64,000 bases of DNA, from contig PHAI01000001.1 of the NCBI GenBank assembly GCA_002840305.1, positions 229,463 to 293,462 on the forward strand. Reading direction: 5' to 3'. Below the pieces are notes generated by a model. It saw nothing but the letters and a program-made list of their open reading frames with translations. It made no database searches and was not told the origin of the DNA. Below are positions 2,673-29,826 of this stretch, one piece after another (within the stretch, counting starts at the first letter, position 1; every line of letters begins with the position of its first letter). The stretch is from Candidatus Falkowbacteria bacterium HGW-Falkowbacteria-1. GTDB taxonomy: Bacteria; Patescibacteriota; Patescibacteriia; Patescibacteriales; UBA12465. The position numbers and the translations under genes are program-made.

Positions 2673-5115
<2,443 letters not shown>

Positions 5116-6640: not shown

Positions 6641-7375
6641 ATGATTAAGGACATGTTTAAAGACAAAAGAATTAGCGCCATTTTTACTGTTGTTTTTACT
6701 TTTTTGTTGATTATGGTGGTTTTTGTTATTGCCAAGAGTGATTTTGGCAAAACAAAAAAACACCAAGAACTTTCTGCTGAAGACATAGAGTCTTTGGTCG
6801 CAGCTGGCGATTTTTTATCGCCAAGTTTGAGATCGGTTGATGATAGTGATGTTTTTCTGGGCAAAAAAAATGCCGATGTAGAGCTTATAGTTTATGAGGA
6901 TTTGTCTAGTTATTATTCTGCTGAATTTAGTAAAACTATTGATTCAATTAGGCAGAATTTTGGTGATAAAGTTCTCGTAGCTTTTCGTCCTTATGCCAAC
7001 AAAATGTTTCCTCTTTCAATATCGACAAATCTTTGGGCTCAATGTGCTATGGAGCAGGGGAAATTTTTTGAAGCAAGAAAATTGTTGTTAAAGCAAGCAG
7101 AAAACGAAACACTTTCTGAGGAATATTTTTCTAATTACGCCAAAGAAATAGGCCTTAATTTAGATTCTCTCGAAAAATGCGTTAAAGGGGAAAAATATTT
7201 AGCTAAGTTGGAAGGCCTGAAAAAAGAAGCCGAAAGATTTGATGTTTATGGTGCGCCGACAGTTTTTGTTAATAATGAAATGATAATAGGGGCCAGATCT
7301 TTTGAGGATGTTACAAATGGAGATGGGCAAAATTTAGAAGGAATGAAGAATATTATAAGTAGAAATTTGAAGTAA
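6641..7375 (+). CDS. membrane-anchored DsbA/thioredoxin-fold protein lacking the CxxC active site
   Basis: N-terminal TM helix. DsbA-family layout (VELIVYEDLSSYYSAEF ... QCAMEQGKFFEA ... GAPTVFVNNEMIIG), but SYYS sits where CPxC is expected. Confidence 0.7.
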   Translation: MIKDMFKDKRISAIFTVVFTFLLIMVVFVIAKSDFGKTKKHQELSAEDIESLVAAGDFLSPSLRSVDDSDVFLGKKNADVELIVYEDLSSYYSAEFSKTIDSIRQNFGDKVLVAFRPYANKMFPLSISTNLWAQCAMEQGKFFEARKLLLKQAENETLSEEYFSNYAKEIGLNLDSLEKCVKGEKYLAKLEGLKKEAERFDVYGAPTVFVNNEMIIGARSFEDVTNGDGQNLEGMKNIISRNLK

Positions 7376-7631
7376 TTAAATTTAGATAAATTATGTTGAA
7401 AATGTTTTTATTGCAGTTTCTTTTAGATACTGATGTTCATTTTTATTTAAGGGAATTAGAGGGAAAGATTAATATAAAAAAAATACTTAAAACCAAGAAA
7501 AAATAATTTTTTCTTTGTTTTATTTTTTTGGAGAGCTTCCCGTGTAATTACGAACCTTTCGTTTTGTGACGCTGGATTTCGCCATGTAAAAGTTTTTGTT
7601 ATGCTTTGCATAAGCTAAAACTAACGTGGCT

Positions 7632-7637
7632 TATAAT
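7632..7637 (+). promoter_or_regulatory. candidate -10 box (TATAAT) placing a transcription start near the tRNA 5' fragment at 7646
   Basis: Perfect TATAAT 8 nt upstream of 7646. The only TTGCAT -35-like hexamer (7606..7611) is 20 nt away, so the spacing is poor. Confidence 0.3.
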
Positions 7638-7645
7638 AAAATATT

Positions 7646-7671
7646 GGAGAGTTCGCATAGTGGTCTAGTGC
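7646..7671 (+). repeat. 26-nt exact duplicate of the 5' end (acceptor + D arm) of tRNA-Ser(GGA)
   Basis: GGAGAGTTCGCATAGTGGTCTAGTGC is identical to 8008..8033. The sequences diverge immediately afterwards, and no T arm or 3' acceptor follows. Confidence 0.9.
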
Positions 7672-7749
7672 CAGTCTTCGGCTGGTCAGTCACAGGCTGA
7701 CGCTAAATATTTTAAACTAAATGTATGGCTTGAAATATTTTTTATAAAA

Positions 7750-8001
7750 ATCATATTTTACACATATTTATTAAGAAGTAAAATTAAAAAATGGACCTAC
7801 ATTGGGCCTACAAAAAATTTATGTAGAAGGTTTAAAGAGCATAATAGCGGTAAGGTAAAATCAACGAGCCCATATTTGCCATTTGATTTGATTTATTATG
7901 AAGCATATAATAATTATACATTAGCCAGAAAAAGAGAAATTGAATTAAAAAAGAAGGGGCAACAGAAGGAAATTTTAATGGCAAGATTGAATATAGTATA
8001 A
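7750..8001 (+). CDS. small stand-alone GIY-YIG nuclease-domain protein (no canonical start codon)
   Basis: Manual translation of the frame ending at TAA 7999..8001 gives (I)IFYTYLLRSKIKKWTYIGPTKNLCRRFKEHNSGKVKSTSPYLPFDLIYYEAYNNYTLARKREIELKKKGQQKEILMARLNIV. This shows the Y..Y / YIG / R..H / E pattern of COG2827-type GIY-YIG proteins. The frame is open from 7669, but only ATA/ATC codons (7744, 7750, 7753) precede the domain, which is why it is absent from the ORF track. Confidence 0.55.
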   Translation: MIFYTYLLRSKIKKWTYIGPTKNLCRRFKEHNSGKVKSTSPYLPFDLIYYEAYNNYTLARKREIELKKKGQQKEILMARLNIV

Positions 8002-8007
8002 ACATTT

Positions 8008-8095
8008 GGAGAGTTCGCATAGTGGTCTAGTGCGCACGCTTGGAAAGCGTGTATACCGCAAGGTATCAAGGGTTCAAATCCCTTACTCTCCGCCA
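8008..8095 (+). tRNA. tRNA-Ser (anticodon GGA), class II with long variable arm, CCA encoded
   Basis: Manual cloverleaf: acceptor GGAGAGT/ACTCTCC; D arm GCA..TGC with GG; anticodon stem CACGC/GCGTG with loop TTGGAAA; variable stem ATACC/GGTAT; T arm AAGGG-TTCAAAT-CCCTT; G73; CCA. Confidence 0.95.
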
Positions 8096-8098
8096 AAC

Positions 8099-8126
8099 AA
8101 AAAACCCGAACTGCTTCGGGTTTTTT
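8099..8126 (+). terminator. rho-independent terminator after tRNA-Ser(GGA)
   Basis: A-tract, stem CCCGAA / TTCGGG with loop CTGC, then TTTTTT. Confidence 0.8.
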
Positions 8127-8144
8127 GTTTGCTGAAGATAAAAA

Positions 8145-8278
8145 GAGGGATTTGAAAGCCGGAGGCGATGTGTGAGCATAACGAACACCGCCGAGGCCGG
8201 GTCGGGGAGCTTAGCGAGCGACGAGCAAAGCGAGAAAGCGAGGCTTGGCTACCGTGACCAAACCCCTTACTCTCCGCG
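8145..8278 (+). repeat. GC-rich element, copy L, ending in a second copy of the tRNA-Ser 3' end (CCCTTACTCTCCGCG)
   Basis: GAGGGATTTGAAAGCC...GGAGGCGATGTGTGAGCATAACGAACACCGCCGAGGCCGGGTCGGGGAGCTTAGCGAGCGACGAGCAAAGCGAGAAAGCGAGGCTTGGCTACCGTGACCAAACCCCTTACTCTCCGCG. Near-identical to 9087..9259 apart from scattered substitutions and a ~39-nt indel. Confidence 0.85.
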
Positions 8279-8295
8279 AAAACAATTTTAAGAAT

Positions 8296-8334
8296 AAAAA
8301 AAGTCGAATTGCGAGATTCGACTTTGTTTGTTTT
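8296..8334. terminator. bidirectional hairpin terminator (serves the minus-strand gene 8333..8887)
   Basis: AAAAAAA, stem GTCGAAT / ATTCGAC with loop TGCGAG, then TTTGTTTGTTTT. Confidence 0.7.
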
Positions 8335-8887
8335 AGACTGTTTTAAATTCATCAAAATTGCCTGATTTTATATCGGCAACTGTCATGATTATATAAAACA
8401 ATCCACCTGCTAGAGTTGCCCACAATGGTGCGCCCCTTAAATCTCCACTTATTATGTTGATAAAACAGATTAATGCCATTCCTGACAGAATTCCAAAATA
8501 GGGCAAATGGCTAATACCTCCCAGGCTTATTTTTCCTTTTTGAGGGTAGCCCCAGTCTGGTTTGTGGGACGGCCTTAAGTTCATCCATGCAAAAATTGTG
8601 GCGAGTATAATAGAGAAAGCAATAAAGATAACCCACTCTAAGTTAGTAATTTCACCTTTTATTGCAAGGTGAATAAAGCCATTTGTAATCCATACTAGGC
8701 CGAATAAATCTCCATAGGTTTGTGTGTAAAAATCTTCCCAGTATAAAAATTTTTGCTTACTACTTGAGATAATAGATTTACGAGATGGTAGGTTGCCTCT
8801 TTTTTTGTCTAATTGCTCAGCCAAGTATTGAGATAGACAAAATAAAGTATTTAAAAGAGCGACTAAATAAAAAACTGACCAGTTCAT
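8333..8887 (-). CDS. integral membrane protein, unknown function
   Basis: 184 aa with several hydrophobic helices and no recognised motif. Flanked by the ~210-250 bp direct repeats. Confidence 0.6.
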   Translation of the reverse strand: MNWSVFYLVALLNTLFCLSQYLAEQLDKKRGNLPSRKSIISSSKQKFLYWEDFYTQTYGDLFGLVWITNGFIHLAIKGEITNLEWVIFIAFSIILATIFAWMNLRPSHKPDWGYPQKGKISLGGISHLPYFGILSGMALICFINIISGDLRGAPLWATLAGGLFYIIMTVADIKSGNFDEFKTV

Positions 8888-9008
8888 GATTTCCTCCGTT
8901 TTTTAGTTATTTTTTAATGAATTGTGTCTGTATTATATCATATTTTTTGCGATATGTCAATATTTCAGGTTTTGGTATATTTTACTTAATGAATTTTTGA
9001 ATAAAAAA

Positions 9009-9037
9009 GTTCCAACTACGTCCCACTCTCTCCGCCA
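9009..9037 (+). repeat. degenerate copy of a tRNA-Ser 3' end (no 5' half upstream)
   Basis: GTTCCAACTACGTCCCACTCTCTCCGCCA compared with GGTTCAAATCCCTTACTCTCCGCCA of the tRNA at 8071..8095. It is followed by a copy of that tRNA's terminator. Confidence 0.75.
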
Positions 9038-9040
9038 AAT

Positions 9041-9070
9041 AAAAAACCTGACTTGCGTCAGGTTTTTTTT
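9041..9070 (+). terminator. copy of the tRNA-Ser(GGA) terminator with compensatory stem changes
   Basis: Stem CCTGAC / GTCAGG (loop TTGC) plus a T-tract. Relative to 8105..8120, two stem positions changed on both arms so pairing is preserved. Confidence 0.7.
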
Positions 9071-9086
9071 GTTTGGAGATGGCTAG

Positions 9087-9259
9087 GAGGGATTTGAAAG
9101 CCCTCCTTCGCCATATTTCATATGGCTTCGGCGGGTAAACCGGAGGCGATGCGTGAGCATAGCGAACACTGCCGAGGCCGGGTCGGGGAGTTTAGCGAGC
9201 GACGAGCGAAGCGAGAAGGCGAGGCTTAGCTACCGTGGCCGAATCCCTTACTCTCCGCG
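9087..9259 (+). repeat. GC-rich element, copy R, with ~39-nt extra hairpin insert, ending in AATCCCTTACTCTCCGCG
   Basis: Aligns to 8145..8278. The extra segment 9103..9141 contains the perfect hairpin GCCATAT-TTC-ATATGGC. The last 17 nt before the final G match the tRNA-Ser(GGA) T-arm/acceptor exactly. Confidence 0.85.
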
Positions 9260-9379
9260 CTTGATTTTTATTGGTAATTTCTGTAATATATAAGCATAAG
9301 AAATCTTCGTTTTTTTTATTATTAAATAAAAAATATGGCAAAATAATTTTTTTTATTTTTATTATTAAATTTATTTTTT

Positions 9380-10573
9380 ATGAATAAAAAAATATTAACC
9401 ATGGTGATAATTTTTATTGCCATCGTTGCCCTCGGTTCATATTATTTTTGGACCAACAAGGCAGACAAAAATGTAAAAATTGTGGCAGTAGCCACCATGA
9501 GAGGAATAGACGCTGGCGTCGATACCATTAATGGTGTCAAATTAGCACTTAAAGAGGCTAATTATTTAGTCGGTAAATACAACATAGAGTTAATAGTGGA
9601 AGATAATGGAGATGAAGAGGGCTATTGGGTTGAAGATGTTGAAAAAAATATTGCTGAAAAAGCGGCAAACGATAAAGATGTTATGATTTATCTTGGACCA
9701 ATTGATAGTGGAGCGGCTAAGATTAGTTTGCCAATAACAAATAAAGCTGGATTGCCTCAAATAAGCCCTACTAATACTTGGCCAGGGCTAACCCAGGCTG
9801 GTTTTGCTCCTGGAGAACCAGGAATTTTTTATCCTACTGGAGTTAGAACTTATTTTAGGGTTTGCCCGACTGATGCCGTCCAAGGTCCAGCCGGGGCTAT
9901 TTGGGCCAAAGAGATGGGTCTTAAAAATATTTTTATATTTGATGATGGAACGCTCTACGGTACTGGTATAACTAATATTTTTGAAGAAAAAGCTGTGAGC
10001 TTGGGTTTAAATATTTTAGGACACGAGACTCTTGATAGGGAGGGCCAGAGTTTTGTTTCCGAACTTAATGAATTAAAAGATTTAGATTTGATATATTTTG
10101 GCGGAGTTCCGTCGACCGGGGTCGTTAGTCTCATTAAGGGCATTAAAGATTTGAATTTACAAGCAAAGTTTATGGGAACAGATGGAATTATGGACCAGTT
10201 TATTCTTGATCAAGCTGGAGAGTCAGCCGAAGGTATTTACTTGACTACTATTGGGTCGCCAATAAATGAATTACAAGATGAAGGGGCAGATTTTTATAAA
10301 AACTATGTTAGTGAATACGGAATAGAGCCAAATACATATTCAGCTTTTGGTTATGAAGCCGCAAAAGTTTCCCTGTTAGCCATAGATAGGGCGGGTCAAA
10401 AAAACAGAGAAAAAGTTCTTGGGGAGTTGGCTGGTTTGCGAGATTTCCCGGGTATTTTTGGAAATTGGAGCTTTAACTCTAGCGGTGACACAGATTTAAT
10501 CTTGGTAAGCGGAAACATTGTAAGAGATGGAAAGTTTGAATATGAAAAAACATTGAGTTCCGGTAATAATTAA
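9380..10573 (+). CDS. membrane-anchored type-1 periplasmic binding protein (LivK / branched-chain amino acid binding-like)
   Basis: 397 aa with an N-terminal TM anchor, then a PBP1-like alternating pattern (YLGPIDSGAAK, RVCPTDAVQGPAGA, IYFGGVPSTG, AFGYEAAKV). No ABC permease or ATPase genes are adjacent. Confidence 0.65.
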   Translation: MNKKILTMVIIFIAIVALGSYYFWTNKADKNVKIVAVATMRGIDAGVDTINGVKLALKEANYLVGKYNIELIVEDNGDEEGYWVEDVEKNIAEKAANDKDVMIYLGPIDSGAAKISLPITNKAGLPQISPTNTWPGLTQAGFAPGEPGIFYPTGVRTYFRVCPTDAVQGPAGAIWAKEMGLKNIFIFDDGTLYGTGITNIFEEKAVSLGLNILGHETLDREGQSFVSELNELKDLDLIYFGGVPSTGVVSLIKGIKDLNLQAKFMGTDGIMDQFILDQAGESAEGIYLTTIGSPINELQDEGADFYKNYVSEYGIEPNTYSAFGYEAAKVSLLAIDRAGQKNREKVLGELAGLRDFPGIFGNWSFNSSGDTDLILVSGNIVRDGKFEYEKTLSSGNN

Positions 10574-29730: not shown

Positions 29731-29826
29731 GTCACCTCGACCGAGCGAAGCGAGCGGGGAGGTCTAAAAACATTGGACAATAGATTTCTCCATTCGCCAT
29801 CCGCAGGATGGCTCAGTCGAGATGAC
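29731..29826. repeat. GC-rich imperfect palindromic (REP/MITE-like) element
   Basis: Left arm GTCACCTCGACCGAGCGAAGCGAGCGGGGAGGTCT; right arm AGATTTCTCC...CTCAGTCGAGATGAC with a nested CCATCC-GCA-GGATGG hairpin. Same family as 61092..61385. Confidence 0.8.

Follow-up and report, generated by a model that had tools for sequence, protein, structure and literature searches.

Small GIY-YIG nucleases that act on DNA hairpins are known from the Ssn family, whose 94-aa single-domain members bind a hairpin repeat in single-stranded DNA (ssDNA), cut it a few nucleotides (nt) upstream and are encoded by genes that have the same repeats on their flanks (Chenal et al. 2025, PMC11893778). GIY-YIG open reading frames (ORFs) have also been reported from non-intron insertion sequences in the rRNA genes of bacteria of the Candidate Phyla Radiation (CPR; Tsurumaki et al. 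2024, PMC11270868). The locus described here lies at 7632–8095 on the plus strand of the window, that is the whole stretch of 64,000 nt from a Patescibacteria (CPR) genome that was analysed, and includes an ORF for an 82-aa GIY-YIG protein placed between a truncated 5' copy of a tRNA-Ser(GGA) gene and the intact gene. Window coordinates are used throughout. With a probability of roughly 60%, we read the locus as one copy of a family of selfish hairpin-plus-nuclease cassettes that reside in Patescibacteria tRNA genes and spread by recombination between tRNA copies.

The cassette resembles the Ssn/NTS system in its tiny single-domain GIY-YIG protein (82 vs 94 aa), in the association of the gene with conserved short-loop hairpins and in an architecture like that of an insertion sequence. 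The differences are several: the hairpin of the cassette is a tandem pair of 6-bp stems that is off the SRM consensus and occurs only at the cassette, whereas the Ssn hairpins are dispersed in hundreds of copies; the protein is nearest to UPF0213 and Slx1 by both sequence and fold; and the cassette is found in tRNA genes together with partial tRNA copies, while the Ssn report mentions neither tRNA nor Patescibacteria (PMC11893778). The CPR rRNA insertions share with the cassette the host group, the protein superfamily and a structured-RNA gene as the target without a group I or II intron, but the report on them concerns rRNA only, makes no mention of tRNA, hairpin or inverted repeat, and judges the GIY-YIG proteins to be outside homing (PMC11270868). 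Group I tRNA introns of Patescibacteria at 35/36 occur in the same hosts and at the same favoured anticodon position as the double hairpin in tRNA-Glu (PMC13011429); the cassette, however, has no ribozyme core and needs no splicing, and its interrupted copy is a pseudogene beside an intact tRNA. Also SegB of phage T4 is a GIY-YIG enzyme beside tRNA genes that spreads by recombination with co-conversion of flanks (PMC2330249), but enzymes of this type are larger, have DNA-binding modules, are phage-borne and come with neither a hairpin pair nor a partial tRNA duplication.

Integrase islands likewise land in a tRNA gene and restore it with a duplicated piece, but the cassette is without an integrase, having the 82-aa ORF only, and duplicates the 5' end of the gene rather than the 3' end. 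The REP/RAYT and IS200/IS605 systems likewise combine a hairpin DNA repeat with a dedicated enzyme; theirs is an HUH (Y1) transposase with many dispersed hairpins, whereas the cassette has a GIY-YIG protein and one double hairpin in 64 kb. In Allomyces mitochondria, a mobile GIY-YIG ORF in atp6 reportedly carries a replacement for the gene end and leaves the displaced piece behind, and short GC-rich double hairpins of the mitochondrial DNA are said to act as mobile insertions (both according to Paquin, Laforest and Lang). These cases differ from the cassette in being eukaryotic and organellar with a protein-coding target, and the ORF and the hairpins are not known there as one unit.

The features of the locus are collected in Table 1. 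The first 26 nt of the tRNA gene, GGAGAGTTCGCATAGTGGTCTAGTGC, are present twice (7646–7671 and 8008–8033), as stated in the original prediction, and with the preceding TT the exact direct repeat extends to 28 nt (7644–7671 and 8006–8033). An exact repeat of this length at a spacing of 362 nt rules out chance. The duplicated part of the tRNA comprises nt 1–25 only, as the 26th match (C at 7671) already belongs to a 30-nt double hairpin and is its first base. This hairpin, which breaks the fragment at 25/26, is the key conserved component of the family and had been overlooked. The reading of the three nucleotides at 7701–7703 as tRNA rests on relatives, in which the tRNA resumes contiguously for 3–15 nt before the ORF, and the related loci L202 and L203 have the same CGCTAAATATT after the double hairpin as the window. 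Other parts of the earlier description were borne out: the TATAAT box is present in the sequence, the intact tRNA-Ser(GGA) was recovered by both ARAGORN and Rfam, the ORF matched PF01541 with 54.1 bits (cut-off 22.6; E 1.9e-14; profile positions 2–74 of 78), and its frame contains no ATG, GTG or TTG and is open back to a TAG at 7666–7668 inside the tRNA fragment.

Table 1. Coordinates of the features of the cassette locus in the window, followed by the insertion points of the double hairpin in tRNAs (given as tRNA nucleotide numbers) and the loci of the inverted-repeat subfamily.
Feature	Position	Strand	Remarks
TATAAT, −10-like box	7632..7637	+	8 nt 5' of the truncated tRNA copy; read from the sequence
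Truncated tRNA-Ser(GGA) copy	7644..7670	+	2 nt of leader and tRNA nt 1–25; identical to 8006–8032
Double hairpin	7671..7700	.	CCAGTC-TTC-GGCTGG then TCAGTC-ACA-GGCTGA; 30-nt insertion between tRNA nt 25 and 26
CGC	7701..7703	+	Read as tRNA nt 26–28 resuming past the insertion
AT-rich linker	7704..7752	+	Without the Shine-Dalgarno sequence seen in close relatives (AAAAGGAGGGT-ATG); compared with L203 and L202
GIY-YIG ORF	7753..8001	+	82 codons, single domain; ATA at 7753–7755, TAA stop at 7999–8001
Intact tRNA-Ser(GGA)	8008..8095	+	6 nt past the ORF stop; ARAGORN; Rfam RF00005, 57.7 bits, E 3e-11
Terminator-like hairpin and T run	8100..8127	+	CCCGAA-CTGC-TTCGGG; inverted repeat in the sequence
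GC-rich element, copy 1	8145..8278	+	Inverted T arm (AGGGATTTGAA), about 100 nt GC-rich, tRNA-Ser 3' end at 8259–8277 (18/19 nt)
GC-rich element, copy 2	9087..9259		Inverted T arm (AGGGATTTGAA) at the start; tRNA-Ser 3' end at 9242–9258
Double hairpin in tRNA-Glu	35/36, 22/23, about 12/13, 8/9		At least 24 cases at 35/36
Double hairpin in tRNA-Asp	23/24, T loop		
Double hairpin in tRNA-Ser	25/26, 13/14, 34/35		25/26 in four relatives and the window
Double hairpin in tRNA-Cys	34/35		
Inverted-repeat subfamily	ORF near position 3000 of each locus		L025, L053, L054, L060, L062, L063, L065, L071, L074

The whole cassette measures about 360 nt, and no gene is called at the position of the ORF in the JGI annotation of the contig. 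The consensus promoter scan omitted the TATAAT box because there is no convincing −35 element; the box is presumed to be the old tRNA promoter, which would now drive the cassette. Also the hairpin downstream of the tRNA was not reported by the consensus terminator scan.

The metagenome search with a 28-nt core of the tRNA-Ser produced 80 contigs, seven of which were too short to judge. The ORF was present just upstream of the tRNA in five of the other 73 contigs and absent from 68. Three contigs (L084, L118 and L151) keep the gatA-dsbA-tRNA-Ser order of the window but lack the cassette, and a fourth empty site (L092) is on a contig whose start lies inside dsbA. At each of the four sites dsbA and the tRNA behind it are 0 to about 100 nt apart, with no tRNA fragment, hairpin or ORF. 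That the cassette is an insertion follows from its absence in relatives that share the gene order; its distribution is patchy, with presence/absence polymorphism at a conserved tRNA target. Searching the metagenomes for empty sites through the DsbA-like neighbour gave no confirmed match. The empty sites found in related loci and metagenomic contigs agree with the original view that a GIY-YIG cassette of selfish appearance has been inserted at a tRNA gene. The target duplication proposed along with it held in part: the 5' part of the tRNA is indeed duplicated, but rather than a simple target-site duplication this is a copy of part of the gene together with about 10 nt of its leader, and in relatives the copy varies or occurs in tandem or nested form.

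In the scan of one genome per GTDB species, related loci numbered at least 575, and 80 of them were retained; counts out of 81 include the window. The kept loci come nearly all from Patescibacteria metagenome-assembled genomes (MAGs), many of them at contig ends. In 48 of the 81 loci no more than 30 nt separate the ORF stop from the start of a same-strand tRNA, and 52 loci have such a tRNA within 400 nt, these being Glu-TTC (36), Ser-GGA (9), Asp-GTC (3), Glu-CTC (2), Cys (1) and Ser-GCT (1). Further loci end at a contig border with the tRNA start visible. Most tRNA-linked loci have an exact 5' copy of that same tRNA 40–70 nt upstream of the ORF, which typically covers nt 1–35 in tRNA-Glu and about 1–25 in tRNA-Ser, and extends up to nt 1–58 in one tRNA-Asp. 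Altogether more than 50 independent MAGs share the architecture, with differing sequences and compensatory changes. In sequence comparisons the ORF lineages track the tRNA isotype: the nearest ORF neighbour belongs to the same isotype in 42 of 45 cases, including all nine of Ser-GGA. Falkowbacteria hold both kinds, the window being of the Ser kind and L057 of the Glu kind. Many of the loci L002–L081 stop at a contig end 0–300 nt from the ORF or tRNA, and this suggests that cassettes and tRNA repeats commonly break CPR assemblies.

In every locus with such a 5' copy the duplicated tRNA piece is immediately followed by the double hairpin, which is about 30 nt long and has the form TCNNCC-N3-GGNNGA followed by YCNNCC-N3-GGNNGR, with two abutting 6-bp stems and 3-nt loops. 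In 33 examples, 98.5% of 396 cells were paired and 11 of the 12 pairs had compensatory changes; the examples were chosen by eye, so that a bias towards pairing is possible, and the compensatory swaps are unambiguous all the same. None of 500 shuffles reached the observed covariation, and only 27–48% of the cells were paired when the partners were slid by 1–3 columns. The stem changes are mostly transversion swaps (CG to GC, AU to CG), G.U is present in five of the 396 cells, and the hairpin model scores nearly equally on both strands. With these three properties, a DNA-level structure fits at least as well as an RNA structure. Folded as DNA, the double hairpin of the window forms two hairpins on the plus strand (−5.3 kcal/mol, z −2.2) and folds poorly on the minus strand.

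All hairpin counts were taken from a covariance model (R1), as the regular-expression finder produced false double hairpins from the anticodon and variable arms of tRNA-Ser and missed the window copy, which has two G.T pairs. In the 64-kb window R1 gave a single good match, at 7671–7700 (34 bits, E 6e-8). Matches were present in 59 of the 80 loci and, with few exceptions, lay no further from the ORF than about 150 nt on its upstream side or about 700 nt on its downstream side; in 478 kb of other CPR contigs the sole strong match was in a locus that has the ORF. The hairpin pair is thus a conserved structure linked to the ORF and nearly confined to ORF loci. The sequences flanking it are contiguous in the tRNA, the left one ending at nt p and the right one resuming at p+1, which indicates precise insertion without target duplication. 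Homologous double hairpins at the same tRNA position as in the window were found in L002, L004, L005, L010, L202 and L203. Elsewhere in the window, the stretch 29731–29811 holds a GC-rich island between genes (GACCGAGCGAAGCGAGCGGGGAGGTC) and, after it, the single hairpin CCATCC-GCA-GGATGG, which is of the type of one double-hairpin half (R1 14.5 bits, E 0.027) and has no ORF or tRNA nearby.

By sequence and predicted fold, the protein is a bare catalytic domain of the Slx1/UPF0213 kind and not a modular homing endonuclease. The homologues (n = 50) are nearly all 81–84 aa long with the N-terminus MFYTYLL or MYYTYLI, and the ATA of the window ORF is at the position of the Met in all of them. Alignment columns Y16, R26, H30, N31, E62 and E64 show no variation, Y3 and Y5 almost none, and all these residues are present in the window ORF. 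Catalytic roles of the conserved residues are assigned by analogy with I-TevI and SsnA (Y6, Y17 and E64 of SsnA; PMC11893778). The AlphaFold model of the family, with a predicted local distance difference test score (pLDDT) of 92.7, has the expected beta-beta-alpha-alpha-beta-alpha order. Profile comparison against the PDB gave the UPF0213 proteins BH0048 (E 9e-11) and EF2693 (4e-8) as the best matches, and Foldseek with the family model placed BH0048 (1zg2) first and then chains of the Slx1 nuclease domain, the latter with a template-modelling (TM) score of 0.64–0.70, a root-mean-square deviation of 2.1–3.6 A and 26–30% identity. The catalytic domain of I-TevI matched more poorly than Slx1 (TM 0.44–0.46). 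The group I intron endonuclease model TIGR01453 reached 19–28 bits against a cut-off of 56, and over residues 5–40 only. Moreover, the protein is 82 aa in all and has no C-terminal DNA-binding region, in comparison to more than 200 aa in the I-TevI/Seg type. The assignment to the homing-endonuclease type in the original prediction was therefore abandoned.

The UPF0213 proteins and Slx1, the best matches by sequence and fold, share the single GIY-YIG domain with the cassette protein. Slx1 cuts branched and stem-loop DNA; it has, however, also a RING domain and needs Slx4, whereas the cassette protein is a single domain. UPF0213 includes YhbQ of E. coli, and no partner DNA element or tRNA linkage is known for this family. 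The window ORF has 85% amino-acid identity with its closest relatives, the ORFs of L203 and L202, which lie in differing genomic neighbourhoods, and the ratio of nonsynonymous to synonymous substitutions (dN/dS) against them is 0.07–0.08 at a dS of about 0.9, indicating that the protein was kept functional over most of its history. A defence role or phage origin was considered and rejected, as PADLOC and PHROGs gave marginal matches only, for one of the three family members tested, and IMG/VR had no relatives.

In relatives, the tRNA pieces and hairpins are arranged in several ways. Downstream of the intact tRNA, many loci have extra partial tRNA copies that reach the tRNA 3' end and contain a double hairpin, either at 35/36 or within the T loop. 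L070, L013 and L016 have the reversed order of intact tRNA, ORF, double hairpin and tRNA 3' part. The clearest case of replacement is L023 (2880–3560), in which the outer pieces rebuild a tRNA-Glu (acceptor GGCCCCA/TGGGGCT) broken by three double hairpins, at 22/23, at 35/36 and in the T loop. These pieces enclose the ORF, repeated hybrid units and an intact tRNA-Glu with another acceptor stem, D loop and T loop. Evidently the cassette brought its own tRNA here, and the resident tRNA is dead. Tandem units of fragment and double hairpin, with and without most of the ORF, are present in L202 (2000–2600, two of the units being without most of it) and L203 (905–1010). In both these loci a single hairpin (GTCAGCCTACGGCTGAC) stands 3 nt past the tRNA 3' end; it matches the second hairpin of the pair in reverse complement.

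The same small GIY-YIG ORF also occurs in a second subfamily, which has neither tRNA nor double hairpin and in which an inverted repeat of about 12–16 nt spans the gene, e.g. ACCCGCACACC...ORF...GGTGTGCGGGT (Table 1). One further family member, L078 (300–800), is inside a 16S rRNA gene with 16S sequence on both sides and ties the tRNA cassettes to the GIY-YIG insertions known in CPR rRNA genes. Other small GIY-YIG lineages, with differently shaped insertions in pseudo-tRNA copies, were seen in three of the tRNA-Ser contigs (L110, L138 and L155). Their insertions are either single 20-nt D-loop hairpins or two 11-nt mini-hairpins (CCCCGAAGGGG CCCCGTTGGGG), and in L138 the interrupted fragment is upstream of the tRNA and the ORF downstream.

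The cassette of the window is most likely a recently silenced, decaying copy in which the reading frame itself is intact. It is read as decaying because both the Shine-Dalgarno sequence and the ATG have been lost and because each of the two hairpins has one G.T pair. In L203 and L202, the fragment and the double hairpin are followed by CGCTAAATATT-AAAAGGAGGGT-ATG; where these loci carry ...CGCTAAATATTAAAAGGAGGGT-ATG, the window has CGCTAAATATT, 38 unrelated AT-rich nt and ATA. The hairpin score of the window, 34 bits, is low for the family, most other canonical 30-nt copies having about 36–49 bits. The missing start codon, for which non-canonical initiation had been considered, is not a signal of that kind: AAGGAGG and ATG stand at the corresponding place in close relatives, and neither is left in the window; weak initiation at the ATA might still occur. 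Rescue of the start by a frameshift was considered, since two ATGs (7721 and 7725) are out of frame and a T7 run would restore one of them; it was rejected, as all homologues start MFYTYLL exactly at the window ATA. An alternative genetic code with UGA as a sense codon was likewise rejected, as the neighbouring genes read normally in table 11.

Under the preferred reading, a cassette consists of a truncated 5' copy of a tRNA, the 30-nt double hairpin, a few tRNA bases with a short linker, the 82-aa GIY-YIG ORF and, 0–20 nt past its stop, the intact copy of the same tRNA, and thus an interrupted and an intact copy of one tRNA are found next to each other. The nuclease would recognise the hairpin pair as folded DNA, either single-stranded or cruciform, and nick or cut beside it within the tRNA-derived sequence; for such action on hairpin DNA the Ssn nucleases and Slx1 serve as precedents. 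The tRNA-homologous arms could then recombine, so that the cassette would be copied into empty tRNA genes of the same type. Selection would keep only products with a whole tRNA, and the interrupted tRNA pieces would be scars of the process. The ORF may be transcribed from the tRNA promoter and the tRNA freed by RNase P from the 3' end of the message, which is plausible because the intact tRNA follows the ORF stop.

Several observations weigh against this reading, and every step of the mechanism is one that we infer. The double hairpin does not follow the SRM consensus of the Ssn nucleases (HGTCWY...RNCYNB), which had one chance-level match in the 81 loci, far from the hairpin, and the protein is nearer to UPF0213 than to the Ssn clade by sequence, so the Ssn analogy may not hold. 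As the intact target tRNA is regenerated, the usual immunity of homing, in which the insertion destroys the target, does not apply. No relatives were found among the viral contigs of IMG/VR, and thus no vector for horizontal spread was identified. The insertion positions include a few in the D stem and are therefore not all in loops. Several of the tandem or nested arrays are at contig ends or N runs (L039, L079) and may partly be products of assembly. In the window itself the double hairpin is present upstream of the ORF only, and the ORF is without a start codon and Shine-Dalgarno sequence.

A second way of viewing the family, possible but considerably less probable, is an undescribed class of mobile element in which the insertion kills the resident tRNA and the cassette supplies a replacement, which would amount to a drive by tRNA replacement or 'addiction'. 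The double hairpin would then enter the tRNA mostly at loops or loop-stem junctions, and the host could not lose the cassette without losing an essential tRNA. If true, this would also provide a natural pair of structure-reading mini-nuclease and DNA hairpin in many co-varying specificities.

Classical homing was the next explanation weighed, and it is unlikely. By this account the 82-aa protein, perhaps as a dimer or with a host partner, would cut a double-stranded empty tRNA gene and break repair would copy the ORF with its flanks, the hairpin being an RNA feature of the 5' untranslated region that serves as a stabiliser or in processing. Filled and empty alleles of the same conserved tRNA and the specificity of ORF lineages to a tRNA isotype would be expected from homing; GIY-YIG homing enzymes are known beside tRNA genes, e.g. 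T4 SegB (PMC2330249), and the main point in tRNA-Glu, 35/36, is the site of the Patescibacteria group I tRNA introns (PMC13011429). The protein, however, lacks a DNA-binding domain, falls far below the cut-off of the group I intron endonuclease model and is structurally closer to Slx1 than to I-TevI. Furthermore, a filled allele with its regenerated tRNA would stay cleavable, and the covariation of the hairpin and its scoring on both strands fit an element at the DNA level better than one at the RNA level alone.

Less probable again is a domesticated host function, in which the protein would serve its host in housekeeping or regulation, for instance on RNA or where replication or transcription stalls at highly expressed tRNA genes. 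The ORF would be co-transcribed with the tRNA to which it is linked, and the fragment with the hairpins would be a regulatory leader and not a scar of mobility. The strong purifying selection (dN/dS 0.07) is unusual for decaying selfish endonuclease genes, and the order of leader, ORF and tRNA is constant and compact. UPF0213 proteins are encoded by widespread chromosomal genes of unknown function, and a prokaryotic fusion of an Slx1-like GIY-YIG domain with TrmH was seen as a possible pointer to RNA metabolism (PMC1564403). Such a function agrees poorly with the absence of the cassette from 68 of the 73 contigs that carry this tRNA, among them relatives in which the gene order is unchanged, and with its occurrence at different tRNAs within the same host groups. 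Also the tandem, ORF-deleted and nested units of relatives, the related ORFs inside a 16S rRNA gene or between long inverted repeats, and the loss of translation signals in the window copy speak against it.

An intron-like element, by which 7646–7670 would be joined to 8033–8095 after removal of the intervening part from the transcript, is very improbable: insertion points such as 35/36 do resemble Patescibacteria tRNA intron sites, and archaeal non-canonical tRNA introns occupy scattered cloverleaf positions in a similar manner, but Rfam gave no group I or II match down to E = 1 in 7000–9600, the complete downstream tRNA needs no splicing, and in most relatives the upstream and downstream pieces are cut short and do not add up to a tRNA. 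Assembly artefact or a meaningless chance duplication is hardly credible, for although many related loci end at contig borders and the repeats do disturb assembly, an independent NCBI assembly (Candidatus Falkowbacteria HGW-1) encodes the same protein with 99% identity and the architecture recurs with different sequences in dozens of unrelated assemblies.

Downstream of the tRNA, the window has two copies of a GC-rich element (8156–8278 and 9137–9259) that are 91% identical over 123 nt in an otherwise AT-rich genome and end with the last 17–19 nt of the tRNA-Ser. They belong to a directly repeated module of about 200 nt (8075–8278 and 9017–9259, 942 nt apart), in which the terminator hairpin, the inverted T arm and the GC-rich element lie between two tRNA 3' ends; the second copy lacks the tRNA body and contains an additional 39 nt. 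Between the two copies lies a minus-strand ORF of 184 aa (8333–8887) with no Pfam match, and no integrase was found between the 3'-end repeats at 8259–8277 and 9242–9258. The module resembles a scar left at the tRNA 3' end by an earlier integration or duplication. The element at 8145–8278, which belongs to the cassette only doubtfully, may be what remains of the displaced 3' part of an older tRNA copy. The 123-nt repeats were also considered as structured RNA and rejected, with fold z values of only −1.1 and −0.8 and no Rfam match, and they have no sequence relatives in any related locus retrieved. Similar openings of inverted T arm and GC-rich sequence, unrelated in sequence, follow the tRNAs of L015, L017, L018, L024, L021, L147 and L151. 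Most of these elements end in a tRNA 3' end, while in L151, where the contig ends, and in L018 the available sequence does not extend that far. As L151 has no GIY-YIG ORF, such an element can occur independently of the cassette.

About 100 nt 5' of the tRNA fragment, the sequence GGAGAGCTTCCCGTG (7530–7545) resembles the 5' end of tRNA-Ser (GGAGAGTTCGC) apart from a single additional base. This may be a tRNA fragment of greater age and decay, or a chance resemblance.

The full-text literature search found no account of the combination of tRNA fragment, double hairpin, GIY-YIG ORF and tRNA, with the reservation that its coverage of subscription journals is limited and such an absence is not proof. 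The cassette family is thus apparently undescribed as well as widespread in CPR bacteria. Mini GIY-YIG elements associated with hairpins are known; what is new is the target, a tRNA gene, and the way in which it is spared. For annotation the family carries a warning, as gene callers miss the ORF and tRNA pseudo-fragments flank it.

Bacteria of the CPR have tiny genomes with, as a rule, one gene per tRNA, and it is exactly such genes that the family, with its at least 575 loci among GTDB species representatives, has colonised. If the proposed reading is true, it would extend the pairing of a one-domain GIY-YIG protein with a DNA hairpin (Ssn/NTS) to a second protein lineage and a new target, and the many co-varying hairpin/nuclease pairs could serve as sequence- or structure-specific ssDNA cutters. 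It would also account for tRNA fragments and contig breaks in CPR assemblies. It would further show how a selfish element can do without an intron and still live in an essential RNA gene, which it either brings along or regenerates.

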